A DNA stretch of 64,000 bases from Candidatus Thiodiazotropha sp. (GCA_040507035.1 JBEVVR010000034.1:28589-92588), one strand, 5' to 3'. Numbered from the stretch's first letter, positions 5,147-64,000 are shown. Made by a program: numbers and translations. The notes: generated by a model from the sequence alone, not told the origin.

Positions 5147-5164
5147 TTCCCTTAACGCCATCTA

Positions 5165-34661: not shown

Positions 34662-34674
34662 GGAGTTATAGAGT

Positions 34675-38605: not shown

Positions 38606-39181
38606 ATGGACAGCGTGTCACGCATCAGTCACCGAAGAACCGAGCATGGCATGACACTTGTTGAAGTGTTGATTGCGGCAGTAGTCGTGGCGGTAGGTCT
38701 GCTCGGTATCGCAAGTCTACAGATAAATGCACTCCAGGGTTCGACCCATGCCGACTACCGGACCAGGGCCATCGACTTCGCCACCGCCCTCTCGGACCGT
38801 ATGCAGGCCAATCTTATCGGTGTCGCCGACAACAACTATCTGCAGGCCCCAGCCTGTAATTTGAACTTGGCATCCGTTGCGCCCAACTGCGCAATGACAC
38901 CTGAAATGGCTGACGCCGCAACGATTGCCGACTGTGACCCTCAACAGCTGGCAAGCTACGACCTACATCAACTCGGCTGTGGGCCAGGGATAGAAAACAG
39001 CCTGCCTGGCGGAGTTCTGCAGATCGCCTGCATAGATAATGATACAAGCGATGTTGATCCTTGCAGCGATCTCTCACCCCTGTTGATAACCATCAGTTGG
39101 CAACAACAAGGCAGAGTGACCGACAGAGACCCTGGAGATGCGCAAGAGATCAGGATGACAGTCATCCCGGGGGAGCCTTAA
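38606..39181 (+). CDS. pilV: Minor pilin PilV, copy 2
   Basis: G|MTLVEVLIAAVV; paralogous to 32777-33346. Confidence 0.85.
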   Translation: MDSVSRISHRRTEHGMTLVEVLIAAVVVAVGLLGIASLQINALQGSTHADYRTRAIDFATALSDRMQANLIGVADNNYLQAPACNLNLASVAPNCAMTPEMADAATIADCDPQQLASYDLHQLGCGPGIENSLPGGVLQIACIDNDTSDVDPCSDLSPLLITISWQQQGRVTDRDPGDAQEIRMTVIPGEP

Positions 39182-39183
39182 TC

Positions 39184-40035
39184 ATGTCTCGATCACAACA
39201 CCATCAGCATGGGTTCTCATTGATATCACTGATGATTGCCAGCGCCATCGGTCTGTTTATCGTCGGCGGTATCGGTAAGATCTATATCGATGGCAAGAAC
39301 GCCTTCAATGCAAGGGCTGCGATCGCCGCGGCGACCGAGTCCTACCGTTTCACCTTCCAGGAGATGCGTCGCAACCTGATCATGGCAGGCAGGGGAATTG
39401 CAACATCCGACGACAGCGCTTCAGCCTACACCGATGCCCAGAGTGATCAGGGCCTGCGCACCTTTCCTGCCGTAGATCGCACTCCCGATGGCATCGTCAG
39501 CGGCACCCAACAATCAGACGATGGCTGGAGTCCGGCACCGCAGGAGTCGAGTATTGTCGCGATACGTTATGCATCTGGCCCTACACCATGCGGTGCGGAC
39601 AATCTAGATATGAGTGCCGGCACGGTAACGGTCAGATTCATCGTCAATGAAACAGGCGACCTTAACTGCCAGGTCTTTCAAAACAATGCACTATTTGACT
39701 CACAACCCATTGCTGCTGGTGTTGCCCAGATGCGTGCCCTCTATGGTGTCGACACCGATGCAGAGCCCGATGGGGTGGCGAACCGATATCTGACCGCCGC
39801 AGAAGTCACATCGCTGAACTGGATGAACGTGGTCTCGATCAGAATAGGCCTGGTGGTCAATTCCGGAACCGGTTATGAGCTGCCAGGCGCCTATCGTCCG
39901 GAAACACCGGAACAGTTGGATCTGCTTGGCGCAACCTTCACTGCACCCGACACCGACTATATCTACAGATCAGCGACCACCACTATCTCATTACGCAACC
40001 TGCACCACATGGATCGTCAATTTGCCGAGGAGTGA
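39184..40035 (+). CDS. pilW: Minor pilin PilW, copy 2
   Basis: G|FSLISLMIASAIG; paralogous to 33343-34173; start ATG 39184. Confidence 0.82.
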   Translation: MSRSQHHQHGFSLISLMIASAIGLFIVGGIGKIYIDGKNAFNARAAIAAATESYRFTFQEMRRNLIMAGRGIATSDDSASAYTDAQSDQGLRTFPAVDRTPDGIVSGTQQSDDGWSPAPQESSIVAIRYASGPTPCGADNLDMSAGTVTVRFIVNETGDLNCQVFQNNALFDSQPIAAGVAQMRALYGVDTDAEPDGVANRYLTAAEVTSLNWMNVVSIRIGLVVNSGTGYELPGAYRPETPEQLDLLGATFTAPDTDYIYRSATTTISLRNLHHMDRQFAEE

Positions 40036-40044
40036 GAAGTCATC

Positions 40045-40557
40045 ATGCCGCTAAGCAGACTTATAAAAACAGATAGCAAACAAACCGGCGCCGCCCTGGT
40101 TATCAGTCTCGTGATTCTCACAATCGTTACCCTGCTAAGTGTTACAGCCATGCGCAACACCAATCTGGACACCAAGATCGCGGTCAACCATCAATTCAAG
40201 GAGATCAGCTTTCGCGCCGCCGAGAATGCACTGGCTATCGTCACCGGTCCGGAGTTGAGTGTCCTGGACAACCTGGACATACCCAATGTAGAGGGTGAAA
40301 TCACCCGCAGCGATCCATTCTTCACCACCCATGATGAGCTAGGAAATCCTCTCGAACCGGCTTTTTCCGATCAGCTTCCGATGCGCGCGAGTCTTACCAT
40401 GGAGTATCAGGGGGAGAGACAGGGACTCTTTTTTTCCGGACACCAGCTGGACAACACAACCCACCTGTTTCTTGTGGATGCTGTCGGTACCGTGGCTGAA
40501 AGCGCCACCCACACACAAAACCGAATGCAGGTCGGATTGATACGACAACAGCATTAA
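40045..40557 (+). CDS. pilX: Minor pilin PilX, copy 2
   Basis: G|AALVISLVIL; 'TKIAVNHQFKE.SF.AAENAL' shared with copy 1. Confidence 0.82.
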   Translation: MPLSRLIKTDSKQTGAALVISLVILTIVTLLSVTAMRNTNLDTKIAVNHQFKEISFRAAENALAIVTGPELSVLDNLDIPNVEGEITRSDPFFTTHDELGNPLEPAFSDQLPMRASLTMEYQGERQGLFFSGHQLDNTTHLFLVDAVGTVAESATHTQNRMQVGLIRQQH

Positions 40558-40574
40558 GAAATGGATCCATCCCT

Positions 40575-43400
40575 ATGAGTCACCCTAGAACATTGAATGC
40601 ACATCAACCAATATCGGCGGTATTCGGTCTGTTAATTCTCATCACCTTCTCGGCTGGCCTCATGGCTGACGATATCGAGGTCTATCTGCAACCGCCACCT
40701 GATCAGGTACCCCCCAACATCCTGTTTCTCCTCGATGAATCGGGAAGTATGGACGGCGAGGTTGTGCGAGGCATCACGCGCCGGGACGCGCTGGTCAATG
40801 CATTGAACAGAATCCTCAATGCCGGCACACTGGACAATGTCAATGCCGCACTGCTTGGCTATAGTACGCTAACGGATACCGGTGAATCCGTACGCCTGGT
40901 AGCCCATACTGGTGATTTCACCCTAGTAGGCGATGAGAGAGCAAGCTTCAGATCGGCTATCGATCAGTTAGAGACGCTACACTACACCCCGACCACCGAT
41001 GCCTTGGCTGCCGCTGTCGATTGGTTCCATCCTGATCGGATCCCGAGTCAAATTCAACCCAGCGGTTTGCAGTCACCATTGACCGGCGATCCCGAAATAC
41101 TCAAATGTGCGCCAAACCGAATCGTCTTGCTTTCCGACGGTGCTCCCAATACCAGTACCAGAACCGTATATGAAGGCATTCCCTGTGCAGAGGTATCTCT
41201 TTTCGATAGTGCCGGTCGTAACGAGGGTGCGCGTTGCTCCAATGAGATCAGCGCTTGGGCCTATAATACCGATTTGGCAACCGGTGAGGGTTGGGATGGG
41301 ACTCAGAATATCCTCACCTACACCCTCTCTTTCGGCACCACGCCCGGATCTGATACCCAGCGGTACATGAATAGGGTAGCCCGTTCGGGTGGCGGCGAGT
41401 CATGGATCGTCGCCAATGAAGATGAGATCGCCGAGGCCTTCAGCTACATCATCAATGAGGCACAGAACTCAATCCGCTACGTGATGAACGCACCCACCAT
41501 TCCCTTCAATCCAGACAATGCCGCGGTCAGTGAGGACGTTATCTTTGTCCCTCTCTTTTACCCAGATGCCAGAAGATTTTGGCATGGCAATCTGAAGAAA
41601 TATAACGTCAATGTCACCGACGACGAAATTGAACTCCGGGCACGTGGCGGGCAGCGGGTACTCAATGACGATCATACTTTTGCCAGTACGATTGACCTCT
41701 TCTGTGATCACAGAAGCTGCGAGCCCGATGAAGGCGACCCCCTGGTCGGTGGCGCCGCCAGCAATATGACCGGGTTGAGAAACCTCTATACAAACCTGGA
41801 TCACGGGCATCCTCTCAACCATCAGACAAACCGGGTTCACCGGGATACGGCCAACATCACCAATGAATTGCTCGATGTCAGCAGTGAGGAAGAGCGTATC
41901 CAGCTACTCAATTGGATCACCCGGGACCCCGCCTATATCGCCACAGAAGAGCAGCCTTCCCTCGACGGGGTGATGGGCGCTCCTATCCATCCCCAGCCCG
42001 TGGTTGTCGACTATGACGGCCAAGGGCGCACCGTCTACATACCCACCAGCGAGGGTGTGCTGGAGGCCATAGATGCAGAAACCGGTGAGGAGCTCTGGGC
42101 CTTCATGCCGCAAGACCTGTTGCGAAATATCCGCCAGCTTAGGAACAATGAACCCTCGGTGACGCCCTACTACGGCCTCGACGGCCCGCTGACCGTCTAT
42201 GAGACCGATGGCAGAAAGATGGCCATAGTCGGCATGCGGCGGGGAGGCAGGAAATACCATCTCCTGGACATCAGCGATCGGCGGCAGCCTGTCTATGTCA
42301 GCGAAATATCAGCTGACGCCGCACCAACGGAGTTCTCCAACCTGGGACAAACCTGGTCCAAACCCCTATTCGCAACCATGTGGATCAACAATGCGGAACG
42401 CGAGGTGCTGATCTTCGGCGGCGGTTACGATCCCGACCAGGACAATGGCAATGGTGCCGACGACGAAGGCAATGCAATCTATGTGGTCGATGCAGCGGAC
42501 GGGTCGCTGCTGATCTCTGTATCCAACAGCGGCGCATCACTCAATATCAACGACATGGAAAACGCCATACCCAGCAACCTCGCCACCGTGGATATCAACG
42601 GTAACGGTATCGTGGATCGCATCTATGCCGCCGATGTAGGTGGCAGAATCATCCGCGCCGATTTCGAGGATCGGGACAGGGCGGACAATGCTCTATCCGG
42701 TGGTATCATCGCCGACATCAACCAGGGAGCCAATGCCCACCGCAAGTTCTTCACCACCCCCCAGGTTGGTTACTATTCAAAGGGCGCGCATCAGTTCCTG
42801 GCGTTATTGATCGGCACCGGTGATCATGCCGATCCTCTCGAGACCCATATCACCGACCGCTTCTACATGATCAAAGACGGCAACATCTGGGATCATGCCA
42901 TCAGTCAGCAACCCGCCGTTGACAACGACTTCATCAATGCCAGCACCACCGCCCTGGTCAACGGTGAGGTATTGACCCACTATCGGGGTTGGTATATCAA
43001 CTTCGAAGGTTCGGAGAAGTCCTTCTCCAGGGCGATTCTCTATGACTATTCGATCTTCTTCACTACCTACAGCGCTGAGAGGGTAGTCCCCGACGAACCC
43101 TGCGAAGTCGAGTATACAAGAGGGACTGCCAGGATCTACGGCCTCGACCTCATCAGCGCCAATGCCGCCGTCAACTGGAACGGCATTACAGAGCATGAAC
43201 TCACCATCAGTGATCGCTCATCCCAGCTACGACTCCAGGGTATCCCCCCCTCACCGATGCTGTTCTTTCCCGGCGGTGTCGATGACAATGGGGATGCCGT
43301 GATTGGCAGAAGAATCTTCCTCTTTGCCGATCTACAGAAGAAACACGAATGGAGCGACCGCTTCCGTCCCATCTACTGGGAGGAGGTGATCGAGGATTAG
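40575..43400 (+). CDS. pilY1: Type IV pilus tip adhesin PilY1, copy 2
   Basis: 'LLDESGSM', 'WHGNLKKY', 'LGQTWSKP', 'DINGNGIVD'; ends 'PIYWEEV' like copy 1. Confidence 0.88.
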   Translation: MSHPRTLNAHQPISAVFGLLILITFSAGLMADDIEVYLQPPPDQVPPNILFLLDESGSMDGEVVRGITRRDALVNALNRILNAGTLDNVNAALLGYSTLTDTGESVRLVAHTGDFTLVGDERASFRSAIDQLETLHYTPTTDALAAAVDWFHPDRIPSQIQPSGLQSPLTGDPEILKCAPNRIVLLSDGAPNTSTRTVYEGIPCAEVSLFDSAGRNEGARCSNEISAWAYNTDLATGEGWDGTQNILTYTLSFGTTPGSDTQRYMNRVARSGGGESWIVANEDEIAEAFSYIINEAQNSIRYVMNAPTIPFNPDNAAVSEDVIFVPLFYPDARRFWHGNLKKYNVNVTDDEIELRARGGQRVLNDDHTFASTIDLFCDHRSCEPDEGDPLVGGAASNMTGLRNLYTNLDHGHPLNHQTNRVHRDTANITNELLDVSSEEERIQLLNWITRDPAYIATEEQPSLDGVMGAPIHPQPVVVDYDGQGRTVYIPTSEGVLEAIDAETGEELWAFMPQDLLRNIRQLRNNEPSVTPYYGLDGPLTVYETDGRKMAIVGMRRGGRKYHLLDISDRRQPVYVSEISADAAPTEFSNLGQTWSKPLFATMWINNAEREVLIFGGGYDPDQDNGNGADDEGNAIYVVDAADGSLLISVSNSGASLNINDMENAIPSNLATVDINGNGIVDRIYAADVGGRIIRADFEDRDRADNALSGGIIADINQGANAHRKFFTTPQVGYYSKGAHQFLALLIGTGDHADPLETHITDRFYMIKDGNIWDHAISQQPAVDNDFINASTTALVNGEVLTHYRGWYINFEGSEKSFSRAILYDYSIFFTTYSAERVVPDEPCEVEYTRGTARIYGLDLISANAAVNWNGITEHELTISDRSSQLRLQGIPPSPMLFFPGGVDDNGDAVIGRRIFLFADLQKKHEWSDRFRPIYWEEVIED

Positions 43401-44681: not shown

Positions 44682-44757
<76 letters not shown>

Positions 44758-47451: not shown

Positions 47452-49557
47452 TTAACTCATTCGAATAGGCAATTCATAACTTGACCTACCTGTTGCATTT
47501 AAAACAGCATTTGCAATGGCTGGGGCAAGTGGCGGCACACCAGGCTCTCCTATTCCCTCGGGATTCTCTGAGCTTTTCAATATATGCACTTCAATACTAG
47601 GAACTTCATCTAAACGAATGATAGGGTAGTTATAAAAGTTTTTTTGCTCTACCTGGCAATTGTTAACGGTAATCTTTGATTTAGTTGCTGCTGTAAGCCC
47701 CCAAATAATCCCTCCTTCCATTTGCTGCTTAACAATATCAGGGTTAACTGCCACACCACAGTCTACTACACAAAAGACTTTATGAAGCTTAAAACCATTT
47801 TCCTTAATCTTTTTGAGCATCACGACTTCTGCAACATAGCTTCCAAAGGTCCTAGCCGCAGCGATCCCGTAAATGTACTCCTCATTCGCCCTCTCACTCC
47901 AACCTGAAAGCTCTGCAACAGTCTCTATCACTTTACTTAACCGACTTGAATTTTTTAACAAATTCAAGCGATACTCGATTGGGTCATAGTTGCTTTGTAA
48001 CGCCAGTTCGTCTATTAAATGCTCAATGACATAAACATTGTAATGTGCACCTACAGATCGCCACGAACCCTTGCGCAGGTACTCCGGGCCATTTAGAACT
48101 TCGATTTTCTTATTTGGTATGTCATATAGATGATCAGCGCCTATTGCATTGACTCCTCCTCCCTTAATTATATGATGCCATGCTAACGGATAGCCTTGAT
48201 CATCTAGACATACTGAAATGTCATGCAGCGTTAGAGGATGAAAATAGTCCTGCTTTAAATCTTCCTCTCGGGACCAAACGTGCTGTACTGGATGCTTATA
48301 GCGTTTGGATATTTGAACTGATTCTGAAACATAATCATGCTGCAAGCGCCTTCCAAACCCTCCTCCTAAGTAGGTAGTATTGACATTAATCGTATCATCA
48401 TAACCTCCTAGGATATCATTTTTTAGTTGCCTTAGTTTCCGCTCTATTTTTGATTGAGCAATATTTTTAGCGACATCATAGACTCCGGATGGTGATTGAG
48501 TCGGTACCCATATTTCAACATCTCCATCATCTTTAAAATGCGTTGTGCAATTCATTGTCTCCATTGTCATATGGGCTTGGAAGGGCAGGATGTATTCACG
48601 TTTTACAATACGATTTGAAGATTTGAATACCTCATCGACATTCCCAAGAGTCTCCTCCTTTACTCTGCTGTTTTCATCTAATTGCCGAGTCTTATCGATT
48701 ATTGTCTCTGTATCCTGACATTCAACTTGCTCAGACCATTCGACAGCAAGTATCTTTGCGGCTTCAAAAACAGTCCACGTATCCTTTCCGACGATAGCCA
48801 CCCCTTGATCTATAGAAAACACATCTATTACTCCAGCCATGTTTGTTATTGAAGCTGGATCATAGCTAATCAACTTAGCGCCGATAAACGGAGGGTGCAC
48901 TACTGTTGAATATAATTGGTCTTTAAGTTTGATGTCCATACCAAACAGAGCAGTGCCGTTTACTTTGCTGACTAAATCTTTTCTTGGCACGGGTTTCCCA
49001 ATAATTGAAAATTCACTGATGTTTTTTAGTGAAACCTGTTCGTCAATTTCCAAGCCATCTGCTATAGGTATTAATTCTCCATAACTAATTTTTTTGTCAC
49101 CAGTAATCACGTACCCCTGCCCTGCCGTACAACGCTCCTTATCCACCTTAAAATGCAGTGCTCCGGCGCGGATAAATAATTCCCTCGTTAGCGCAGCTGC
49201 CAGCCTTAATTTACCCCACCCTCTTCTTATACTATTACTGCCTCCGGTGAACTGATAGCCATATACGGGATCTACTGACGCCCTCTCCACTAGCACTTTA
49301 TCCCAATTGACCTCAAGTTCTTCTGCGACCAACATAGGGAGTGCAGTATACGTCCCTTGCCCCATCTCTGATTCAGATACAATTACCGTTATAGTATTGT
49401 CTGGAGAAACTCTAATCCAAATATTAGGCATGAGGTTGTTGGATGTATTTTGTTTTTGTGATTCACAACCAACATTAACCCCTAAAAACAGGCTACCACT
49501 TGCTACCAGTCCAGAAACCTTTAAAAAATCTCTGCGAGAAATTGGTATTTGGTTCAC
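47452..49557 (-). CDS. iorB: Molybdopterin-binding subunit, isoquinoline/aldehyde oxidoreductase beta type
   Basis: Tat signal SRRDFLK, 'SEMGQG..T.L..LVAEEL', 'GGGFGRR', 'WRSVG', 'GIGEPGVPP.APAIANA'. Confidence 0.85.
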   Translation of the reverse strand: MNQIPISRRDFLKVSGLVASGSLFLGVNVGCESQKQNTSNNLMPNIWIRVSPDNTITVIVSESEMGQGTYTALPMLVAEELEVNWDKVLVERASVDPVYGYQFTGGSNSIRRGWGKLRLAAALTRELFIRAGALHFKVDKERCTAGQGYVITGDKKISYGELIPIADGLEIDEQVSLKNISEFSIIGKPVPRKDLVSKVNGTALFGMDIKLKDQLYSTVVHPPFIGAKLISYDPASITNMAGVIDVFSIDQGVAIVGKDTWTVFEAAKILAVEWSEQVECQDTETIIDKTRQLDENSRVKEETLGNVDEVFKSSNRIVKREYILPFQAHMTMETMNCTTHFKDDGDVEIWVPTQSPSGVYDVAKNIAQSKIERKLRQLKNDILGGYDDTINVNTTYLGGGFGRRLQHDYVSESVQISKRYKHPVQHVWSREEDLKQDYFHPLTLHDISVCLDDQGYPLAWHHIIKGGGVNAIGADHLYDIPNKKIEVLNGPEYLRKGSWRSVGAHYNVYVIEHLIDELALQSNYDPIEYRLNLLKNSSRLSKVIETVAELSGWSERANEEYIYGIAAARTFGSYVAEVVMLKKIKENGFKLHKVFCVVDCGVAVNPDIVKQQMEGGIIWGLTAATKSKITVNNCQVEQKNFYNYPIIRLDEVPSIEVHILKSSENPEGIGEPGVPPLAPAIANAVLNATGRSSYELPIRMS

Positions 49558-49567
49558 TTATACATCC

Positions 49568-50023
49568 TCATTCGCAATTTTTATCGCAATTCAATAATGC
49601 AGATTTCACTCTAGGATAAGTGCCACATCGACACAACACTCTGGACATCGCTCTATCGATATCTTCTTCATTTGGAGAGTTAGTCTTATCTAGTAAAGAG
49701 GCCGCCATGAGAATCTGGCCTGACTGGCAATATCCACACTGAGGAACCTGATGTTTGATCCAAGCCTGCTGAACTTTCTTTATATTTTGATTGTGCTCGG
49801 CCCCCTCAATCGTTACCACATCCTTATCTACACAATCGGATGCTTTTAAAATACAAGAATACTGGGGGTCTCCGTCTACCAACACCATGCAACTTCCACA
49901 AGCTCCGACACCACACCCGTATTTAGTACCAGTAAGCTTTAAATAATCTCGTAAAACCCAAAGCAGTGGAATATCGTCAGGCACACTGACTTCATGAACT
50001 TTTCCATTAATTGTTAAAATCAT
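49568..50023 (-). CDS. iorA: (2Fe-2S)-binding subunit, alpha type
   Basis: 'GTKYGCGVGACGSC', 'QCGYCQSGQ', 'CRCGTY'. Confidence 0.9.
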   Translation of the reverse strand: MILTINGKVHEVSVPDDIPLLWVLRDYLKLTGTKYGCGVGACGSCMVLVDGDPQYSCILKASDCVDKDVVTIEGAEHNQNIKKVQQAWIKHQVPQCGYCQSGQILMAASLLDKTNSPNEEDIDRAMSRVLCRCGTYPRVKSALLNCDKNCE

Positions 50024-51134: not shown

Positions 51135-53315
<2,181 letters not shown>

Positions 53316-53985: not shown

Positions 53986-55926
53986 ATGGAGGATGGCTTG
54001 ATGACAAATCTTTCTGTGTTTGGAACTAAGGCTGAACAAATACCAACCGCATTTGTACAGCGTTACGTGAGATTTTGTCTCCTCTTTGTCTGGCTTGTCC
54101 CTGCACTCATCCTGTTACCGGGCTGTAAACCCGCGTGTGACGACGGCGTTTGCGAGCTAGGCGAGACCTGTGAAACCTGTCCCCAGGATTGCGGTCAATG
54201 TGAACAGGACCCGGTTTGTGACGACGGCGTCTGCGATTTGGATGAAACCTGCGAGACCTGTCCCCAGGACTGCGGCCAATGTGAACAGCACCCGGTCTGT
54301 GACGACGGCGTCTGCGAATCAGGTGAAAGCTGTGATAGCTGTCCACAGGATTGTGGCGTCTGTCCGTCACTGTCGGTAAGCATCACTGCGCCTGTTTCCG
54401 GCGATGTTGTCTCCGGTCCGGTTACCGTCACGGCTGACGCCACTGATACAACCGGGGTGGCTGGTGTACAGTTTCAGCTCGATGGCATCTATCTCGCCGC
54501 GGAACAGCGAAACTTCCCGTACGAAATTGTGTGGGACACGACCACAATAGGCAACGGCGATCACACGCTGTCCGCCATCGCACGAAATGTCGTGGGAGAT
54601 CTCGAACTTTCCAATGAGGTTCAGGTCACCGTAGAGAATACAACACCTTCGGACGGCTTCCCCCCGGACGATCTCGGTCCTGCTCGTGGTGGTCTGGTCT
54701 CATCTGTTGCAGACGGCATGGGAGTGGGCATCGGCGTCAATCCCGGTGATGTGAGCACCTATGCCGATGAGATCCAGAACGCCGGATTCACCTGGGTGCG
54801 CTCGCGTCTGTTGTGGAAGGCCATCGAAACCACACCCGGCGTCTACAACTGGACCGTGGCACCGAACTACGATCGCATCGCCAATGAATTCAATAACCGA
54901 GGGATTGGTGTGCTGTTCATGGTTACCTACCACAACGATACAGCCTACTCCGGCCTGTCGGGTAATCCGCCGTTCAACGCCACCGGTCGGCGGAACTTCG
55001 GTAACTTCCTCAAGGCGGCGGCAGCCCACTTCAAAGGCAGGAAGATAATGTTCGAGATCGGTAACGAACCGAACATAAAACAGTTCTGGCCCGTGGACGC
55101 CAACAACAATGGATCGGTCACCATGACAGAGGTGCGCGACGCCGCGCGAGCATACGCCGAGTTGGCCAAGGTAGCCATCCCCATGGCGAAATCAGCGGAT
55201 GGGGATCCGGATGCGTTCATCATCGGCCCAAGTCTTGCCAATCGCGGCGGACCCTATATCGGTGGTGAGGTCGGCGCCCATGTTTACATACAAGAGCTTA
55301 AAGCCGCAGGCGCTCTCGAGCCATTATTCGATCGCATCAGCATTCATCTCTATACGGCAGAAGGTAGCTTTCCCCAGCAGAATATGCCGGATGGACAGGC
55401 CCCCGAGGATGCCCATATCGAACTGTTTCGAGATCTCATCGCCGACCCCAACGCCAACATGATCAACACCGAGCATGGTTGGAAATCTGATGGAAGCGCC
55501 CTTCAGGATCAGCTGCAAGCCAGCTTCAACATTCGGGACTTCATCTATGGACTATCCCAGGGGGTTCGCATGCGTTTCTGGTTCCTCTGGAGTCACTCGT
55601 CCGGCATGACGGATTGGTTCATCGCCGGCACGCCCGCGGCGGACGCCACCCGTATTCTCGATCGTGAGTTGGGCGATTTTCACATGCTGCGCCGCGTACC
55701 CAGCGCCAATCCGGAGCACTATGTCTTCGAATTCGCGGATACGGCAGGCAACCGACGCCTCTGCGCCTGGAAGGCAAATACCTCGACCCCGGATGTGTTC
55801 ACCTATCCTTCCACGGCGGACGCAACAGTGGTCAACCTCTACGGCAACGAAGAGAGTGTGTCTTCCAATGGCACGTCGATCTCGTTGAACTTGGAGATCC
55901 ACCCTGTATATGTACGATTGCCATAA
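53986..55926 (+). CDS. Lipoprotein: three Cys-rich repeats + Ig-like domain + clan-A glycoside hydrolase (GH5/GH39-like) domain
   Basis: Lipobox LPG-C; 3x CDDGVC..GE.C..CPQDCG.C; Ig-like 'VSITAPVSGDVVSG.V.V.A.A.D..GVAGVQF'; acid/base 'EIGNEPN' and nucleophile 'INTEHGW'. Start uncertain. Confidence 0.75.
   Translation: MEDGLMTNLSVFGTKAEQIPTAFVQRYVRFCLLFVWLVPALILLPGCKPACDDGVCELGETCETCPQDCGQCEQDPVCDDGVCDLDETCETCPQDCGQCEQHPVCDDGVCESGESCDSCPQDCGVCPSLSVSITAPVSGDVVSGPVTVTADATDTTGVAGVQFQLDGIYLAAEQRNFPYEIVWDTTTIGNGDHTLSAIARNVVGDLELSNEVQVTVENTTPSDGFPPDDLGPARGGLVSSVADGMGVGIGVNPGDVSTYADEIQNAGFTWVRSRLLWKAIETTPGVYNWTVAPNYDRIANEFNNRGIGVLFMVTYHNDTAYSGLSGNPPFNATGRRNFGNFLKAAAAHFKGRKIMFEIGNEPNIKQFWPVDANNNGSVTMTEVRDAARAYAELAKVAIPMAKSADGDPDAFIIGPSLANRGGPYIGGEVGAHVYIQELKAAGALEPLFDRISIHLYTAEGSFPQQNMPDGQAPEDAHIELFRDLIADPNANMINTEHGWKSDGSALQDQLQASFNIRDFIYGLSQGVRMRFWFLWSHSSGMTDWFIAGTPAADATRILDRELGDFHMLRRVPSANPEHYVFEFADTAGNRRLCAWKANTSTPDVFTYPSTADATVVNLYGNEESVSSNGTSISLNLEIHPVYVRLP
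54136..54366 (+). repeat. Three 81-bp coding repeats (27-aa Cys-rich units)
   Basis: Units start at 54136, 54217 and 54298. Confidence 0.9.
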
Positions 55927-56433: not shown

Positions 56434-57173
56434 CTTAGGAAGTTAAGCATATTAGGATTGATGCGAAATTCAAACATGATTGGCAAAAACAGATATTACA
56501 AGCGATCCCGAATTACAGAAAAGAAATTTCGTTTGATTATCCGATATTTTGCTCTCGACATTTCCGCATCAGACACTGCAAGGTTAACTGGAATTTCCGT
56601 GCGTTCGATTAATCCCATCTACATTAAATTACGCACTCGCCTGTCTGAAGAATGCGAAAGACTGGCTCAGTATAAAGGGATTAGCGAAACCATTGGTACC
56701 TGTTGCAGGAAAAATATGGCCCACAATAATACTGATAATAATGGAGACTGCAAAACAATGTTATTTGGTATTATCAAACAAAACGGATGGGTATATACCG
56801 AGATAATACCCGGCGATAGTAAGCAGATTCTGCAAAGTGTCATGCGAGACAAATTGAAACTAGATAGCCGTATCCATCCAGATGGCAGGCGTGAATATCA
56901 AGGTTTGATAGACATGAGTCGCGCAAAGTACTATCACATCCAAAACAGAGACAGTCACTCAGTGAGTATAAACTCAAAAATCAATGGCAGTGAAACATTT
57001 TGGGCTTATGCAAAACTGCGTTTGAGTAAAATGAAAGGCATCCGTCATGGTATGTTTTACTTCCATTTAAAAGAGACAGAATTTCGTTTTAATCATCGTC
57101 GTGAAGACGTCTATCCACTTGTTTTAAAACTACTGCGAGAGAATCCTATTTGAAACCTTTGGCTTCCTAAGAC
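56434..57173 (+). mobile_element. IS1595-family element with degenerate ends
   Basis: cttaggaagtta (56434) and cttcctaagac (57163) flank a transposase-like ORF in inverted orientation. Confidence 0.6.
56461..57153 (+). CDS. IS1595/ISXO2-like transposase derivative, apparently lacking the first catalytic Asp
   Basis: 'KNRYYKRSRITEKKFRLIIRYFALD' HTH region, 'IHPDG', 'INGSETFWAYAK', 'FHLKETEFRFNHR'. Confidence 0.75.
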   Translation: MRNSNMIGKNRYYKRSRITEKKFRLIIRYFALDISASDTARLTGISVRSINPIYIKLRTRLSEECERLAQYKGISETIGTCCRKNMAHNNTDNNGDCKTMLFGIIKQNGWVYTEIIPGDSKQILQSVMRDKLKLDSRIHPDGRREYQGLIDMSRAKYYHIQNRDSHSVSINSKINGSETFWAYAKLRLSKMKGIRHGMFYFHLKETEFRFNHRREDVYPLVLKLLRENPI

Positions 57174-57415: not shown

Positions 57416-57737
57416 GGTCTTAGGAATTTAAAATTGTATTTTTATCCTTTCTCAACAATAAACCTTCAACCAAACATATATCCGAAATTGATAAAGTAAC
57501 ATATCTAACTAGAATATAGTGCTCATTCATCGACCAATATATATTTAACGATGTTTTTTACCGATTGATCCACAATATCTTCAGTTATCGCAAGAGCGCT
57601 ATAAGTTTCTATTGATAAAAATAATGCGAACAAATAATGATATTTTTAATCAATGGTTAGGCAAATAACCCAGCTCACTTTTTTTAAACATTTTCTCAAG
57701 TTAACTTCACTCAACAGTTACATAACTTCCTAAGACC
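57416..57737. mobile_element. MITE-like element with IS1595-type terminal inverted repeats
   Basis: ggtcttaggaattta ... taacttcctaagacc (14 of 15 match) around a 322-bp AT-rich interior with no convincing ORF. Confidence 0.55.
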
Positions 57738-58253
57738 CCATAGAAACAACCACTGAAATCAATACTCCCAACAAGTCCAACCGGTATGATTTGTCTTTTT
57801 TTATAACAACAAATGTTCAATCAAATTTTGTTGCTGTAATACTATACAGTACTTTTAACAGCCAACCACTAATCGGGTACTTACCACCGCTCATTCTTCT
57901 GCATCTTGTCAACTAAAATTCAAAGATTAAAACTAACCCGTCACTTGAACATGGGCACTTACTTAGTAGGTTTCCAACTGTCAGTAATTTGAATTTTTAA
58001 TAATGACAGATGCATTCTGTGACACGAGTCAGAGAAATTTACAAATGGATAAATAATCTATCTGAATCTAAAAAAACAGAAATAGAAATAAGCAAAAAAA
58101 ATTGACGACCTTGTGTTGTCGGTATTGTGCAATATTTGTACATGTCATGCTTTAGATAATACAGGTTCTTTTTAACGGCCTGCTTTCCAGACATGATCAA
58201 CACGCACTGGATATCGCATCAAAATATGCACATCGCACTAAGGAGAGGTTTCG

Positions 58254-61200
58254 ATGCATCTAAAGCAAAGGCGAATATTTTCCACGCAATCAGTACTGGT
58301 CTCATTACTTGTTCTTTTCACTGTACTGATCCATTCCACACAAGCACAGGCCACGTCCAGACTACTCAATAGCTGGCAGGCGGCTTATCCCAACTCATTA
58401 AGTGACGATAATCTTGCCGATCCCTGCACATTATGTCACAGCGACAATAGTTATAGTGAACTCAATGGCTATGGTTGGGACATGGATAGAATAAGTAATG
58501 ACTATTCTGCATTGGAATCTCTGAATTCAGACAATGATCCCAACAACACAAGTAACCTTGATGAGATCAATGGCAATACCCAACCAGGTTGGACCGCAGG
58601 TGCAAACAATGTCATCAACGGTGGTTCGGTAACCAGTAACGCATCACCTGCCCAGATAATCGCCGGCTTGCATGATCCAGAAGTAATCAACCAAGCACCA
58701 GTAGCGGATATCGGTGGCCCCTACAGTGGCACTCAGAATATTGAGCTAAGCTTCGATGCATCGAACTCCACAGACATAGACGGCATCATCACCGACTATG
58801 CCTGGGACTTTGGGGATGGCAGCAGTGGTAATGGAGTACAGGTTTCACATATCTACACAGCAACAGGAAACTTCAATGTCACATTGATTGTAACTGACGA
58901 CCAGGGCAACAGTACCACAGCATCCACTTCGGTTATGATTGGTGCTGGCAATCTGCCTCCTGTTGCCTATGCCATGGGGCCATACACCAGTCAAGTGGGT
59001 GAAGCGGTTAGCTTCGACGGCAGCGGCACGACCGACGCAGACGGAACGATTGTCAGTTATGATTGGAATTTTGGTGATGGCAGCTTCGGAACAGGCGTCA
59101 GTCCTACCCATGCCTACTCAGCCAGCGGCACATACAACGTCACTCTGACAGTGACCGATGATAACAATGCGGTGGATTCCGATGTCACTTCGGTCAGTGT
59201 TGAACAGGCCAATCAGGCACCAACAGCAGATCCTCGTGGCCCCTATACAGGCACAGTCAATACCGCTGTTACCTTCGATGCATCCGCTTCCAGTGATGCG
59301 GATGGTCAAATAAGCAGCTATCAATGGGATTTTGGTGACGGTACTACCGGCACAGGAGTAAATCCGTCGCATACCTATGCAGTTGCAGATGTCTATAACA
59401 TCACCCTGCAAGTGACTGACAACAACGGTGCTAGCGCTACCGCCACCACCACCGCCACGATTGGTGATGTGATCAAGGAGCCACCTACCGCCGTTGCCGG
59501 TGGACCATATACCGGCACTGTCAACCAAACTCTTGAATTAAGTGCCAGTGGCAGCACCGATCCTGACGGCCAAATCACCAGCTATACCTGGGACTTAGGT
59601 GATGGCAATTCAGCAAACGGTAGCAATGTCTCTCACACCTATAGTGATGCCGGGACTTTCAACATTACGCTTACTGTTACAGATAATGATGGCATCATGG
59701 ATACCGCCACAACCACGGCGGTTATCGGCTTGGGCAACCTATCGCCAACAGCTGACGCAAAGGGTCCCTATACAACGACCATTGGAACAAATGTCAATTT
59801 TGACGGCAGTGGCTCAGTAGATCCCGATGGCACTATTGTCGCGTATGACTGGGACTTTGGAGACAACTCAACAGGCACCGGGCCGAAACCATCCCATTCC
59901 TATAGTGCGGAAGGAACCTACAACGTAACACTTACCGTCATTGATGACAGTGGCGCCATGGACTCAGCAGCCACTACTGTAACTGTAACTTCCAATGAGG
60001 ACCCGGAGATTGTCGGTTCTGCGGAAATCACTAAGAAGTTTAACTGGGGCAGAGGTTTTCTGGGAATCGGCACCATCAACAATGATTCAAATAAGCCAAT
60101 TAACATGTGGGAGATCAGTTTCGGTGCGGATTTCGAAATATACCGTATCTGGGGAGCAAAGGTTCTTTCTCACACCGATGGCATCTATATCATTACCGCA
60201 AAAGGAGACAATCAATCCATTCTTCCTGGTGAGATGGTGAGATTCGCCTTTATTGCCGGGCCAGGGGATAGCCCGATTCCTGACGAAATAGCCTTGGTTG
60301 ACAGGGGTGAGTCAACACCGGGTAGCGGTAATCAGGAGGTCCAGACTGAAGTCACGATGGAGTCTGTCAATGAGTGGAGGAAGGGCTTTCAGGGCATGGG
60401 GTCTATACACAATACCGGTGATGAGCTGATAGATGGCTGGACCCTGAGTTTCGATGCTGACTTTGAGATTAAAAGGTTATGGAATGCCAGGATAGTTTCT
60501 CACTCAGAAAATAGGTATGTGTTGTCGGGAAAACGGCGGAGCAAAATAATAGAACCCGGTAAAGCTGTGACTTTTGGTTTCATTGCAACACCCAGCGGAT
60601 CCTTAATGCCCACTCATTTCTTGGTGAATGGGTCTGAGAGTAATGCAGGAGATGATTCCGATACTGGTGATAATTCAGATAGCGGGGATGACGCTGATAC
60701 CGGGGATGACGCCGATACCGGGGATGACGCTGATACCGGGGATGACGCTGATACCGGAGATGACGCTGATACCGGAGATGACGCTGATACCGGGGATGAC
60801 GCTGATACCGGGGATGGCAACGATACCGGGGATGGCGCTGATACCGGAGATGACGCTGATACCGGGGATGACGCTGATACCGGGGATGGCAACGATACCG
60901 GGGATGGCAACGATACCGGGGATGGTAACGATACCGGGGATGGCAACGATACCGGGGATGGCAACGATACCGGGGATGGCACCGATACCGGGGATGGCAC
61001 CGATACCGGGGATGGCACCGATACCGGGGATGGCACCGATACCGGAACCACTGTCGGCGGGCTCGATTGCTCAGGTGCGGTCTTTGGCTCCTCAGGAGCG
61101 CCGATTCGACGCCTGACTCACACCGAATACCAAAATAGTGTCGCCAGTCTGTTCCCAGGCGTGTCCCTGCCAAGCCTGAATCTACCTGTCGATCAACGCA

Positions 61201-62594
61201 TGAATGGATTTACCAATGCAGCTGAAGGTCAAGCACCGTCGGCATTAAGTGTCGATCAGTACGCTACTGCTGCGGAGTCCATTGCCGCAGCAGCAGTCCA
61301 GTCCCTGGGGAGTTGGGCGCCATGCAATGACAGCAATGATGCGGCATGCGCACGTCGAGCGCTAAGCGCTATCGCGCCACGTATCTACAGGCACCCCCTG
61401 TCGACTGAGGAGAACACTGCTATTGACACCTTGATGGAAGGTGCTCTGAATACGGCCACGCCACAGGAGGCCCTCGGCCTGGCACTCACCGGGCTGCTCG
61501 AATCACCAAGCTTTCTCTATCGTCCTGAGTTTGGTACCTCCAACGCCATAGGCAACGCTAGGGAGCTGGATGCCTATGAACTTGCTTCACGCCTATCCTA
61601 CTTCTTCTGGAGAGACATACCTGATGACGAACTGTTGGCGGCAGCAGCGGATGGCAGTCTGCTGACAGACAGTGTCCTTCGCGCCCAGGCAAATCGCTTA
61701 TTGAACGATTCCCGAGCCAGACCGGTGTTGACTGACTTCTTCGTTCAGTGGCTCGGCTTGTACAAGCTCGATACCATGTCCCTTGACGCCGCCGCATTTC
61801 CTGAATTTGACACTGCACTGCGCAGCGACCTGAAGGCATCAGCGGTGAGTTATGTTGAGCATGCCCTGTGGAACGCGGACTCCTGGTCTGTTCTTATGTC
61901 TGGCAGCTATGGTTATGTCAATAACCGCCTGGCGCCGATCTTCGGTGTGCCTGCCCCGAATAGTGACCAACTGGTTCAGCTGAATCTGAACATGAGCGAG
62001 CGGGCAGGTGTACTGACTCAACCCGGCACCCTGGCCTCAACATCCCACGATGCCCGTCACTCACCCATCTTGCGTGGCGTGCAGTTCCTCACCGGGATTG
62101 TCTGTGCTCCCCCGCCAGCACCTGCCGCAGGTGTCGGGATGCCTGACGAGGATCTTGTTGTCGATGAATCGCAGGTGTGCACCACTCGCGATGAAGTTGC
62201 GATGAAACACAGTGCCTCCGCTGGTTGCTCTGCCTGCCATGATGCAATCGATAGCGCCGGATTCAATTTCGAAAATTACGATGCACTGGGTCGTTACCGT
62301 ACCGTGGAAAACGGTTGTCAAGTGGATGCCACGGGCAGTTTCGCAGGCACCGACATTACCGGTGTGTTACAAAATGCCGTTGACCTGGCGTTACAGCTAC
62401 CCACGAGTCGAACGGTAAGCAGCTGCATGACAGAACACATGTTCCGTTTTGCACTTGGCCGTAACGATAAGAGTCAGGATGCTTGCGAAATCTCAAGTCT
62501 CAGTAACCAACTGACAACTACAGATAGCATGCAATCATTGGTGATCGAACTTGTGATGTCACCTTCTTTCCGCAGCCGTCCAAGCACCAACTAA
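58254..62594 (+). CDS. 1446-aa secreted multidomain protein: monoheme cytochrome c, 5x PKD, 2x CBM2-like, acidic repeat linker, DUF1587/1595/1592/1588/1585-type module with a second CxxCH
   Basis: Signal peptide; CTLCH; five 'P.A...GPY.......FD.S...D.DG.I..Y.W.FGDG' units; two Trp-patterned CBM2-like units; 'IRRLTHTEYQNSV', 'LDAYELASRLSYFFWRDIPD', 'SPILRG', 'CSACHDAIDSAGFNFENYDALGRYR'. Confidence 0.82.
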   Translation: MHLKQRRIFSTQSVLVSLLVLFTVLIHSTQAQATSRLLNSWQAAYPNSLSDDNLADPCTLCHSDNSYSELNGYGWDMDRISNDYSALESLNSDNDPNNTSNLDEINGNTQPGWTAGANNVINGGSVTSNASPAQIIAGLHDPEVINQAPVADIGGPYSGTQNIELSFDASNSTDIDGIITDYAWDFGDGSSGNGVQVSHIYTATGNFNVTLIVTDDQGNSTTASTSVMIGAGNLPPVAYAMGPYTSQVGEAVSFDGSGTTDADGTIVSYDWNFGDGSFGTGVSPTHAYSASGTYNVTLTVTDDNNAVDSDVTSVSVEQANQAPTADPRGPYTGTVNTAVTFDASASSDADGQISSYQWDFGDGTTGTGVNPSHTYAVADVYNITLQVTDNNGASATATTTATIGDVIKEPPTAVAGGPYTGTVNQTLELSASGSTDPDGQITSYTWDLGDGNSANGSNVSHTYSDAGTFNITLTVTDNDGIMDTATTTAVIGLGNLSPTADAKGPYTTTIGTNVNFDGSGSVDPDGTIVAYDWDFGDNSTGTGPKPSHSYSAEGTYNVTLTVIDDSGAMDSAATTVTVTSNEDPEIVGSAEITKKFNWGRGFLGIGTINNDSNKPINMWEISFGADFEIYRIWGAKVLSHTDGIYIITAKGDNQSILPGEMVRFAFIAGPGDSPIPDEIALVDRGESTPGSGNQEVQTEVTMESVNEWRKGFQGMGSIHNTGDELIDGWTLSFDADFEIKRLWNARIVSHSENRYVLSGKRRSKIIEPGKAVTFGFIATPSGSLMPTHFLVNGSESNAGDDSDTGDNSDSGDDADTGDDADTGDDADTGDDADTGDDADTGDDADTGDDADTGDGNDTGDGADTGDDADTGDDADTGDGNDTGDGNDTGDGNDTGDGNDTGDGNDTGDGTDTGDGTDTGDGTDTGDGTDTGTTVGGLDCSGAVFGSSGAPIRRLTHTEYQNSVASLFPGVSLPSLNLPVDQRMNGFTNAAEGQAPSALSVDQYATAAESIAAAAVQSLGSWAPCNDSNDAACARRALSAIAPRIYRHPLSTEENTAIDTLMEGALNTATPQEALGLALTGLLESPSFLYRPEFGTSNAIGNARELDAYELASRLSYFFWRDIPDDELLAAAADGSLLTDSVLRAQANRLLNDSRARPVLTDFFVQWLGLYKLDTMSLDAAAFPEFDTALRSDLKASAVSYVEHALWNADSWSVLMSGSYGYVNNRLAPIFGVPAPNSDQLVQLNLNMSERAGVLTQPGTLASTSHDARHSPILRGVQFLTGIVCAPPPAPAAGVGMPDEDLVVDESQVCTTRDEVAMKHSASAGCSACHDAIDSAGFNFENYDALGRYRTVENGCQVDATGSFAGTDITGVLQNAVDLALQLPTSRTVSSCMTEHMFRFALGRNDKSQDACEISSLSNQLTTTDSMQSLVIELVMSPSFRSRPSTN
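60645..61040 (+). repeat. In-frame 18-bp tandem repeat, 22 units (TGDDAD/TGDGND/TGDGTD)
   Basis: Counted directly: 20 regular units plus 2 degenerate leading units, 396 bp in total. Confidence 0.95.
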
Positions 62595-62607
62595 TCAGGA
62601 GAGTGAC

Positions 62608-64000
62608 ATGACTAAACGAATCAATCGCAGAACCGCTCTCAAATTGATGGCTGGTACTACCGCCGGCGCCTCGCTTCCCTGGTTGTTCAGTCCCAGTGCG
62701 CGAGCAGCAACAGGGGTGCCATTGCGTATCCTTTTCATCGAGGTCGAATGGGGTGCCCGTCGCGGGAGCTGGGAACCCACCGTTGCCGGCCCACAGATGG
62801 TGCCCCAGGATCAAGTCGATACCGCATGGGCATTCCGCGACAAGATGCGCATGCTCGACCCCTATCGAAACCGTACCACGATATTTCAGAATCTGGATAT
62901 GCTGAGTGCCAAAGTCGATCCGACGGGACCTGCTAATGCCCATTTTGATGGGATGACGCAAATGCTGACAGCGGACAACCGGGTTTCTGCCGAACTTGGT
63001 AACGGGCCTTCCATCGACCAGTTCATCGCGCAGCAACTGGCTGCCAACGGGGTTGCCACTCGCTTGCAGTCCCTTGAGCTGCGTGCGACACCTGACGCCA
63101 GTCAATGGTCTCGCAGCGAAAGTTATCACGCCTACTCGGCACCTGGTCAGCAGGTGCCCTTTATGACCTATGTGCCGGACGTGTGGGATCGCTTGTTCCC
63201 GACCCCACTCGATCCTGGCGCGACAGTTCAAACGCCGGCCCAGACCCGAAGAACCCTGCTGCACACATTTGTTCGTGGCGAGTATGACCGCTTACTGACC
63301 AATGTGAGTTCTGAAGATCGTATCAAGCTCACGCAGATGCGCGACCTGCGAAGCGATCTCTACAATGCCGCGAATGTGGTCAGTGGACGCGACGCCTTCC
63401 GCCCATCACAGGCTTCGATCATCGATCCCTGGTCGCAGTTGGATGAGGGCTATGAAAAAGGCAACCCAAACAATCCGACCTGGCGGGTACATTGTGAGCT
63501 GATGGCGCAATTGGCAGCTGCTGCACTGCACACCGATACAACACGGGTTGTCAATCTGTCGTTCACCCGGCCACCGGACTATGAGTTTGGTTATAACAAT
63601 GGAGATTATGGCACTTCCGACAGCCACGCCCTCTACCATGAGGTGTGTGGCGATACCCCAACACTCACAAATTCGACTGCTGTTTCGACCGTCGACGCAT
63701 CGGATAAGCGTGGTTATGACCAGGTTCGCTACACCCTCGATTTCCTTGACAGTCTTCAGGAGACGGATGGAACCAGCCTGCTTGATAACACATTGGTTGT
63801 CGTCCACTCACAATTATCAGATGGTAGTCACGATCTGACACGTCTTCCCTGGCTGGTGATCGGTGATGCGCAAGGCTACCTTAGGACAGGTCAGTACATC
63901 CGCTTCCAGGCAATCAACCATAGAGACGGCCAGACAGTAACCGATGCTGACACCAACTTCCCTTACATATGGAATGGCGCCGGCCGCCCTCACAACGACC
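62608..64000 (+). CDS. Tat-exported DUF1552-type protein (3' truncated by window edge; missing from the supplied ORF track)
   Basis: AGGAG RBS; ATG 13 bp after the previous stop; MTKRINRRTALKL twin-arginine signal; 'GPSIDQFIAQ', 'TRVVNL', 'DGTSLLDNTLVV..SQLSDGSH...LPWLVIG', 'PHND'. Confidence 0.8.
   Translation, partial: MTKRINRRTALKLMAGTTAGASLPWLFSPSARAATGVPLRILFIEVEWGARRGSWEPTVAGPQMVPQDQVDTAWAFRDKMRMLDPYRNRTTIFQNLDMLSAKVDPTGPANAHFDGMTQMLTADNRVSAELGNGPSIDQFIAQQLAANGVATRLQSLELRATPDASQWSRSESYHAYSAPGQQVPFMTYVPDVWDRLFPTPLDPGATVQTPAQTRRTLLHTFVRGEYDRLLTNVSSEDRIKLTQMRDLRSDLYNAANVVSGRDAFRPSQASIIDPWSQLDEGYEKGNPNNPTWRVHCELMAQLAAAALHTDTTRVVNLSFTRPPDYEFGYNNGDYGTSDSHALYHEVCGDTPTLTNSTAVSTVDASDKRGYDQVRYTLDFLDSLQETDGTSLLDNTLVVVHSQLSDGSHDLTRLPWLVIGDAQGYLRTGQYIRFQAINHRDGQTVTDADTNFPYIWNGAGRPHND

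Follow-up and report, generated by a model that had tools for sequence, protein, structure and literature searches.

Which function could be shared by the two genes that close a 64,000-nucleotide stretch of DNA from Candidatus Thiodiazotropha sp. (GCA_040507035.1, JBEVVR010000034.1:28589-92588; this whole stretch is called the window in the following)? Gene A (58254..62594) is a single open reading frame (ORF); its product of 1446 aa belongs to the DUF1592 / PSCyt3-PSD family and is an exported c-type haem protein with several domains. Gene B (62608..64000) runs off the window, which holds the first 464 of its approximately 502 aa, and codes for a DUF1552 protein (PF07586). Both genes and all elements described within them are on the plus strand. 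The locus is a genuine, intact copy of a widespread two-gene module, made up of an exported haem protein and a DUF1552 protein exported by means of twin-arginine translocation (Tat). How the two proteins work together can be answered more tentatively: with somewhat less than even confidence we read them as a self-contained operon for a bipartite exported metallo-haem enzyme, in which A would dock B and exchange electrons with it and in which an arm with family 2 carbohydrate-binding modules (CBM2) would rest on cellulose or chitin.

Neither the pairing nor the clue to sugars is new. He et al. (2017) described the pairing of PSCyt3 and DUF1552 as usual, as well as fusions to CBM and Ig-like domains; nothing was known of the function of the pair, and the CBM fusions suggested a role in carbohydrate metabolism (PMC5615132). 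For the sibling DUF1501 system, Kamneva et al. (2012) reasoned that Tat export implies a cofactor and a cytochrome implies electron transfer, and they also argued for carbohydrates and described carbohydrate-binding fusions (PMC3542564). Furthermore, a Cellvibrio-like DUF1592 protein with CBM2 (WP_007644728.1) is listed for a wheat-straw metasecretome, among the biotin-labelled proteins that represent its substrate-bound fraction (PMC6004670), and the DUF1800-DUF1501 pair has been co-transferred with bacterial chitin synthase genes (PMC5122149). No paper characterising the function of DUF1552, DUF1592, DUF1501 or DUF1800 turned up in our full-text literature searches, in agreement with the original prediction for this locus, which spoke of a widespread family with no known function. 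The same prediction considered the CBM clue to be rare, and this does not hold in view of the published fusions (PMC5615132; PMC6004670). Thus, the locus is a useful example and not a discovery: the pair is known and uncharacterised, the host lineage is new, and the accessory arm is unusual, not unprecedented.

With the group III Planctomycete-specific cytochrome loci (PMC5615132) it shares the set of five Pfam domains, their order, the invariant CxxCH and the adjacent Tat-type DUF1552 gene. Unlike these loci, which belong to Planctomycetota and Verrucomicrobiota, it comes from a lineage of sulfur-oxidising Gammaproteobacteria, and its nearest named relatives are Myxococcota. Together with their siblings (DUF1549/1553 or DUF1800 with DUF1501), the DUF1592/DUF1552 proteins are among the most abundant exported pairs without an assigned function in Planctomycetota, Verrucomicrobiota and Myxococcota, and a genome may have up to 17 copies (PMC5615132).

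An obligate gene pair

Gene A ends with a TAA stop codon at 62592-62594 and gene B begins with the ATG at 62608, which leaves a gap of 13 bp; within this gap the ribosome-binding site AGGAGAG (62597..62603) is located 4 nt ahead of the start codon. Both the short distance and the strong ribosome-binding site had been predicted in just this way. From its N-terminus on, gene A encodes a signal peptide, a CxxCH domain, five PKD domains, two CBM2 modules, a repeat linker and a DUF1587/1595/1592/1588/1585 module, and it has two CxxCH motifs, CTLCH at aa 58-62 and CSACH at aa 1325-1329. Both ORFs are intact within the window. The last approximately 38 codons of gene B lie outside it, and the orthologues are intact at 502 aa; its nearest relatives are 502-aa proteins from metagenome-assembled genomes (MAGs) of Candidatus Thiodiazotropha, with 89% and 86% identity.

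We fetched 23 genomic loci with relatives of gene B and searched each of them with profiles of both proteins. This sample stems from a genome scan with 30 closer sequences and is biased towards Myxococcota. In every locus with enough sequence, the gene for the cytochrome module directly adjoins the DUF1552 gene on the same strand, so that the usual pairing assumed for these families was found again throughout (Thiodiazotropha, Polyangiaceae, Sandaracinaceae, Nannocystales, Akkermansia and a Planctomycetota MAG), with the gene order reversed in two of the fetched loci. When the flanking ORFs of 18 loci were clustered, no third conserved neighbour appeared; the apparent additional clusters were shadow ORFs overlapping both genes in high-GC DNA and were discarded. 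The families of gene A and gene B are an obligate gene pair, and this pair is the whole system. Their identity matrices correlate with r = 0.95 (Mantel 0/2000), a value that is expected of any two linked genes but rules out partner swapping.

Within Thiodiazotropha, the cassette is found in three different genomic contexts, the 13-bp coupling of A and B is kept in all orthologues, and these share the architecture of gene A. Compared with two Thiodiazotropha orthologues, the ratio of nonsynonymous to synonymous substitution rates (dN/dS) is 0.10-0.13 for gene B, 0.09-0.10 for the C-terminal module and 0.13-0.21 for the PKD/CBM2 arm. The cassette is under purifying selection within this genus (dN/dS ~0.1). 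Outside of it the nearest named relatives have approximately 50% identity. The closest genomes in the scan are MAGs of Candidatus Thiodiazotropha, all uncultured; therefore, the proposal that this might become a tractable model locus is doubtful, and homologues from Cellvibrio or myxobacteria would be the better experimental models.

The N-terminal arm of gene A

The signal peptide of gene A (aa 1-33, 58254..58352, ending in ...HSTQAQA and followed by TS) was read from the sequence and appears to be of the general secretory (Sec) type. An RR at aa 6-7 was considered as a Tat motif and rejected, because it is not conserved in the orthologues (it is KR in L001 and absent in L004, two orthologous loci) and because c-type cytochromes normally are Sec substrates. 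A single-haem domain follows (aa 34-145, 58353..58688, with CTLCH at 58425-58439), for which Pfam has no model and for which a search of the PDB sequences yielded nothing at E<=10. Its family comprises at least 421 representative clusters (50% identity) at E<=0.001, in which the domain almost always occupies residues ~30-150. The consensus reads W..YP.S.SDDN...C.LCH...N.YGW...DSD.DP.G..NL.EINANTQPGW, and C..CH, N, G, E and PG are invariant across 50 members. The domain weakly resembles NF041762, the GEGP dihaem protein (E 5e-4, 19.3 bits at a cut-off of 300), over profile positions 47-119 of 359 and with one CxxCH, not two; gene A is no full-length, above-cut-off member of the GEGP-motif dihaem proteins.

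Next in order are five tandem PKD domains (aa ~146-590, 58689..60023), matched in five stretches each by PF18911 (E 1.6e-114) and PF00801, and two CBM2 modules (aa ~592-800, 60027..60653), matched in two stretches by PF00553 (79.7 bits, cut-off 24). The CBM2 assignment by sequence is solid: the top matches among PDB sequences are cellulose- or chitin-binding (6f7e, 1exg, 3ndy, 2rtt), and the second module, compared with 6f7e, retains the Trp of the W-x-x-GF and W-N motifs. A word-index search with the CBM2 pair returned a single fragment. The arm ends in an acidic flexible linker, (DTGDxA)n, encoded at 60678..61045 by an 18-bp tandem repeat with 20.4 copies and 93% matches (Tandem Repeats Finder). 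Among orthologues of 1446, 1514 and 1538 aa the start residue of the C-terminal module varies, which is consistent with a variable linker length and suggests that the number of repeats differs between strains.

Among the loci scanned with Pfam, this arm of haem domain, PKD, CBM2 and linker occurs only in the Thiodiazotropha orthologues; the same N-terminal arm is found in one unplaced partial protein (P0194). The gene A versions of Akkermansia and Planctomycetota differ from it, as they carry a PSCyt1 cytochrome domain at the N-terminus instead of the GEGP-like haem domain, the five PKD and the two CBM2. A second haem has thus been gained at least twice, which we read as support for a role as electron relay.

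The 120 closest homologues of the module are short (~335-680 aa; most close homologues ~550 aa). A crude pattern detected a lipobox in approximately 46 of the 61 shorter homologues that were aligned, and a low-complexity tether often comes after it. Gene A has no such N-terminus, although the lipobox is typical and not defining for the family, but an ordinary signal peptide and approximately 900 aa of extra domains. In the Thiodiazotropha lineage, a lipobox-type N-terminus with its tether has therefore been replaced by a putative carbohydrate anchor with a repetitive tether. That the N-terminal tether is swappable is a new constraint on the module, and it argues that the module must be held at a surface, here a polysaccharide.

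Two irregular versions of the arm were seen. In L004 (MAG CTENA6) the reading frame apparently shifts in the stretch that separates the N-terminal haem domain from the first PKD domain (~5410..5680), where '...DYAVLES*' is followed by 'LNSDNDPNN...' in another frame; this is either an assembly error or a lineage-specific decay of the haem domain. An unrelated MAG contig (L030 8001..10336) encodes a protein, P0192, with the N-terminal haem domain, two CBM2 and a GTD linker. It has an odd tail overlapping a PKD-domain ORF, an RHS-repeat protein is located upstream, and the contig stops before any DUF1592 module is visible. P0192 may be related to the gene A arm and have undergone a frameshift or a rearrangement.

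Could the arm itself be the reason for which the cassette is kept? The whole would then be an adhesin or colonisation factor, whose N-terminal part with PKD and CBM2 binds glycans of a host, of seagrass or of particles, with DUF1592/DUF1552 as passenger. Five PKD, two CBM2 and a long linker are an adhesin-like build, the relatives are host-associated symbionts, and the N-terminal haem domain is mostly fused to PKD, Ig-like, cadherin and 'choice-of-anchor' domains, a set typical of surface adhesins; CBM2 occurs among its partner domains as well. Yet selection on the module and on gene B is at least as strong as on the arm (0.09-0.13 versus 0.13-0.21), and the 13-bp coupling to gene B is kept in all orthologues. 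We therefore regard an adhesin as improbable, and prefer to see the arm as the anchor of a bipartite enzyme.

For such a combination of binding module and cytochrome there is an established functional analogue in the extracellular CBM2-cytochrome proteins Cbp2D/E and those of T. turnerae (PMC8981238, PMC10916295, PMC12542752). Cbp2D and Cbp2E of Cellvibrio japonicus and TERTU_2913/3803 of Teredinibacter turnerae are, like gene A, large secreted multidomain proteins in which CBM2 and c-type cytochrome domains are joined with long linkers. Lytic polysaccharide monooxygenases (LPMOs) can be reduced by the CjX183 domain (PMC8981238), and CBM2-cytochrome proteins also occur in a bivalve symbiont (PMC10916295). 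The differences are equally clear. No sequence relation to X183 was detected, as neither the N-terminal domain nor the module profile matched a PDB sequence despite the published X183 structures; gene A has no YceI-like domain according to Pfam; and its presumed electron partner is a co-encoded protein of the alkaline-phosphatase fold, not an LPMO. The window has a YceI-like gene, located in a minus-strand cluster (21660..24884) together with flavodoxin-like, cytochrome b561 and pirin genes. Being separate from gene A, it lends no support to a Cbp2D-like architecture.

The cytochrome module, the DUF1552 protein and a tentative model

The C-terminal module of gene A, PSD3-PSD5-PSD4-PSCyt3-PSD2 (aa 939-1446, 61068..62591, with CSACH at 62226-62240), consists of five Pfam domains (PF07626-PF07637-PF07631-PF07627-PF07624) at aa 952-1439. 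They are in canonical order and all above the gathering threshold, with 53.7, 47.0, 125.8, 82.1 and 44.9 bits. In an alignment of 62 homologues with 32-57% identity, the two Cys and the His of CxxCH are invariant (62/62); there is no other invariant His or Met among them, and H345 of the module peaks at 81%. AlphaFold2 modelled the module as one compact all-alpha unit (predicted local distance difference test, pLDDT, 92.4; predicted template modelling score, pTM, 0.91). Foldseek found no match to this fold in the PDB (best E 0.85), and a profile of the family found nothing significant among the PDB sequences. In the model, the five 'separate' Pfam DUFs thus would be one all-alpha unit of approximately 500 aa, unlike solved structures and a candidate for an unsolved fold of a c-type cytochrome. 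This is a second new constraint on the family.

Weak Pfam links lead from the module homologues to DUF1800 (17/62, best 8e-7), PSD1 (5/62) and PSCyt2 (4/62), and indicate that the helical partners of the three sibling systems are distant homologues. On the side of gene B, one DUF1552 homologue out of 62 also matches DUF1501 (E 8e-5), which ties DUF1552 to the Tat-signal partner of the PSCyt2/PSD1 and DUF1800 proteins. The pairs of DUF1549/DUF1553 (PSCyt2/PSD1) with DUF1501 and of DUF1800 with DUF1501 resemble the pair described here in that a helical, often haem-bearing exported partner is encoded beside a Tat-signal protein. They differ in belonging to other Pfam families that are only distantly homologous, and they are likewise uncharacterised.

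Gene B matches PF07586 ('HXXSHH') with 112.9 bits at a cut-off of 30, and all 62 aligned homologues match this family too. Its leader (aa 1-33, 62608-62706, MTKRINRRTALKL...SPSARA) contains NRRTALKL with the twin arginine at 62626-62631. R7 and R8 are at least 90% conserved among the DUF1552 homologues, and the Pfam model TAT_signal gave weak matches in 22 of the 62. Thus a Tat leader on B next to a Sec-type leader and CxxCH on A, as described in the original prediction, is what the leader sequences show. In the alignment of the 62 homologues (24-89% identity) R40, H112, H344 and H408 are invariant, and S135, D137, Q138, D310, T312, R313, H340 and H462 are conserved to 94-97% (H340 and H462 in 60/62); no conserved Cys was found. 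The five His codons are located at 62941-62943 (H112, motif NAHFDG), 63625-63627 and 63637-63639 (H340 and H344, SHALYHE), 63829-63831 (H408, DGSHD) and 63991-63993 (H462, RPHND). The first three of these motifs had been singled out beforehand, and their His residues proved to be invariant or 97% conserved.

A full-length orthologue of gene B was modelled with AlphaFold2 (pLDDT 89.8, pTM 0.87). In the Foldseek comparison with the PDB, all of the top 50 matches belong to the alkaline-phosphatase superfamily, namely sulfatases, LtaS/LtaP, phosphonate monoester hydrolases and glycerophosphoethanolamine phosphodiesterase; the best E is 2.6e-5 with ~10% identity and low TM-scores of 0.3-0.39. A residue mapping to the canonical metal site is unreliable. 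On the basis of this model, we assign DUF1552 confidently to the alkaline-phosphatase superfamily at the level of the fold class. A profile of the DUF1552 family against the PDB sequences gave nothing significant.

The core fold is thus predicted to be shared with type I sulfatases, LtaS and phosphonate monoester hydrolases, but the catalytic residues do not appear to be. The C/S-x-P-x-R nucleophile (formylglycine) motif is absent from the gene B protein in the window, and conserved acidic ligands after strand 1 are missing, with E or D at position 45, the residue after the first strand, in only 29/62. With hhalign, E. coli AslA gave a short match of the 'LLDNTLVVV' strand to 'LDNTLIVFTSDNG' (E 3e-4, probability 39.8%), near the strand preceding the metal-binding loop, and E. 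coli PhoA gave none (probability 0.5%). The positions aligned to the 'DN' of AslA or the 'DH' of PhoA are Q-L in gene B, with H, E or Q at the first one family-wide, and in these low-probability alignments the invariant H408 is six residues further on. A residue-level mapping onto the metal site via AslA or PhoA was not relied on, the match being short and of low probability. In the model, the conserved His residues are located at helix N-termini or just after strands; the invariant H112 is at a helix N-terminus and may be equivalent to the nucleophile position of the superfamily. Judged from the sequences, the canonical alkaline-phosphatase catalytic apparatus does not appear to be retained in DUF1552. 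Of the suggestion that DUF1552 might be alkaline-phosphatase- or sulfatase-like, therefore, the fold class was confirmed and the catalytic motifs were not, and an enzyme-like subunit with this fold and without the usual nucleophile is a further new constraint.

The fold class leads directly to the main rival of our reading. DUF1552 could be a divergent phospho- or sulfo-ester hydrolase or transferase without redox activity, with DUF1592 as its anchor, substrate-binding lid or chaperone and the haem in a structural or sensory role. The conserved Arg, His and Asp would also suit the binding of phosphate or sulfate anions, and the links of the helical partner to DUF1800 (17/62) and DUF1553 (5/62) suggest a generic design of helical partner plus alkaline-phosphatase-like enzyme. 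Sulfatase genes often adjoin PSCyt genes in Verrucomicrobia (PMC5615132). On the other hand, the Ser/Thr/Cys nucleophile motif is absent and the acidic residue after strand 1 is present in less than half of the homologues, CxxCH is strictly invariant at 32-57% identity, and extra haem domains were recruited on two occasions, which one would hardly expect if the haem were purely structural. We consider such a hydrolase rather unlikely, but more to be reckoned with than any other alternative.

According to the reading that we prefer, the bipartite metallo-haem enzyme, gene B would be the catalytic subunit, which folds in the cytoplasm and is exported by Tat. Its metal or other cofactor would probably be held by R40, H112, D137, D310, R313, H340, H344, H408 and H462, in an active site remodelled from the alkaline-phosphatase fold without the nucleophile motif. 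Gene A would be exported by Sec and loaded with c-type haem in the periplasm by the cytochrome c maturation (Ccm) system. Its all-alpha DUF1592 module would dock gene B in a physical complex, the invariant haem of the module would swap electrons with the gene B centre, and the N-terminal haem domain may serve as a second relay. By means of the PKD spacers, the CBM2 and the acidic linker, the enzyme would sit on cellulose or chitin as an insoluble beta-glycan, and not on the membrane; any secretion beyond the periplasm, and the redox role that the original prediction gave to the pair, would belong to the same proposal.

Several lines of evidence support this reading. The two genes are adjacent in all adequate loci and co-diverge with r = 0.95, and 18 loci yielded no third conserved neighbour. 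All 62 module homologues have the CxxCH, a second haem recurs, the twin arginine is conserved to at least 90%, and five His residues are conserved. Gene B combines the alkaline-phosphatase-superfamily fold with the lack of a C/S-x-P-x-R motif. The arm has CBM2 where approximately 46/61 shorter homologues have a lipobox, and the CBM2-cytochrome proteins provide a precedent as electron carriers (PMC8981238, PMC10916295), as does the CBM2-DUF1592 protein of Cellvibrio for the combination itself (PMC6004670). The cassette is kept in three Thiodiazotropha contexts at dN/dS ~0.1. Finally, the window contains CcmH and, with FccAB, a paradigm in which the cytochrome c subunit is exported by Sec and the catalytic subunit encoded beside it carries a cofactor and is exported by Tat; the analogy is one of logic only, as the folds and the FAD (flavin adenine dinucleotide) cofactor of FccAB are unrelated.

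Other observations weigh against it. To our knowledge, every characterised enzyme of the alkaline-phosphatase superfamily is a hydrolase, transferase or mutase and none is redox-active, which favours the hydrolase just discussed. No conserved sixth haem ligand was found in the 62 module homologues, so that the haem may have a role other than simple electron transfer; one may speculate that this ligand is absent, variable or supplied by the partner. The TM-scores are low, and the assignment of residues to the canonical metal site is not reliable. As for the glycan, the link to it comes from the CBM2 modules, since the glycoside hydrolase-like neighbour is not conserved. Among the 120 closest module homologues, no Pfam domains other than the PSD domains and DUF1800 were listed, and in the alignment of CBM2 to 6f7e no aromatic residue was seen at the usual third surface position. 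Furthermore, no RNA runs among the public runs share words with the locus.

If the pair acts on glycans as a redox enzyme, it would found an enzyme class of its own; if it should be a hydrolase whose scaffold bears haem, thousands of genes would still gain a function. A bolder version, to which we give only a small chance, takes DUF1552 as a redox-active branch of the alkaline-phosphatase superfamily, in which a His-ligated metal replaces the nucleophile and is wired to a dedicated c-type cytochrome of an unsolved fold, and the CBM2 versions oxidise crystalline cellulose or chitin. Bacteria would then have, in these versions, a counterpart to the systems of LPMO plus cytochrome that is made of wholly different parts. 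For Thiodiazotropha, the cassette is a hint that a lineage of chemosynthetic symbionts maintains the means to make contact with cellulose or chitin.

Genomic surroundings

Upstream of gene A is an AT-rich non-coding region of approximately 0.8 kb (57471..58253, plus strand), which can be aligned with L001 (~4485..5370) and L004 (~4530..5409). It contains conserved blocks, among them ACTTCCTAAGACC, ACATCTTGT and TTGACGACCTTGT..CATGCTTTAGAT and ends in the ribosome-binding site of gene A, AAGGAGAGG. The genes beyond it differ in all three Thiodiazotropha lineages (the window, L001 and L004), and this DNA, which travels together with the cassette, may serve as an extended regulatory leader. A scan for consensus promoters and terminators upstream of gene A found no more sites than in shuffled sequence, and a search with Rfam, which gave tRNA only, had no match in this region.

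A divergent gene resembling glycoside hydrolase family 5 (GH5) is located 2.3 kb upstream of gene A on the same strand (53986..55926; Pfam Cellulase E 2e-8, with a Big_7 domain); its protein has only a weak match among PDB sequences. This gene and the CBM2 of gene A could suggest a polysaccharide-degradation locus centred on GH5, in which the cassette works with the upstream hydrolase. But a remnant of an IS1595-family insertion sequence (IS) transposase (56458..57153) and a spacer of 1.1 kb with 36% GC intervene, the GH5-like gene is absent from L001 and L004, whose cassettes have entirely different upstream genes and no glycoside hydrolase, and none of the 18 loci compared above revealed a third conserved gene. 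Such a locus is very improbable. Thus, from the glycan clue as originally put forward, the CBM2 domains are retained and the nearby hydrolase, unconserved and behind a transposase remnant, is not.

At 44682..44757 there is a tRNA-Thr(CGT), followed by an abrupt drop in GC, to 0.42-0.44 over 44-50 kb and 0.36 over 56-58 kb. Between this tRNA gene and the cassette we found DUF4377, a molybdenum (Mo)-hydroxylase with its 2Fe-2S subunit (47452..50023), DUF454, KatG (51135..53297), the GH5-like gene and the IS remnant. The segment 44682..64000 looks like a genomic island; a second copy of the tRNA-Thr 3' end as its boundary was not found within the window. From this, one might take the cassette for cargo that was acquired horizontally, is of little use today and may be decaying in some lineages: it lies downstream of a tRNA gene, in DNA of patchy low GC and beside an IS remnant, its closest named relatives outside the genus are Myxococcota with approximately 50% identity, and the L004 orthologue has the apparent frameshift after the N-terminal haem domain. 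However, both ORFs in the window are intact, dN/dS is ~0.1 over three lineages, and the frameshift in L004 could stem from an error in the assembly of the MAG. Hence we see hardly any likelihood of such cargo.

At the other end of the window, the cytochrome c maturation gene CcmH/CycH, represented by its C-terminal part (4..786), and a multihaem cytochrome (3653..5146) precede FccAB, that is an FccA-like dihaem cytochrome c (5695..6366) and, downstream of this partner, the FccB flavoprotein of flavocytochrome c sulfide dehydrogenase with its Tat signal (6377..7663). FccAB is a marker of sulfur oxidisers. Together with the multihaem cytochrome and CcmH, with the mollusc metagenome mentioned below and with the Thiodiazotropha MAGs as closest genomes, it fits a sulfur-oxidising symbiont of the lucinid type or one of its near relatives. 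The region 32313..43400 holds two tandem sets of type IV pilus minor pilins (32313..37758 and 38606..43400), each consisting of FimU/GspH-like, PilV-like, PilW and PilX proteins and a PilY1-like protein of ~1000 aa with a VWA domain. Among public sequencing runs, only one, of DNA from a mollusc metagenome, shares words with the locus (7%).

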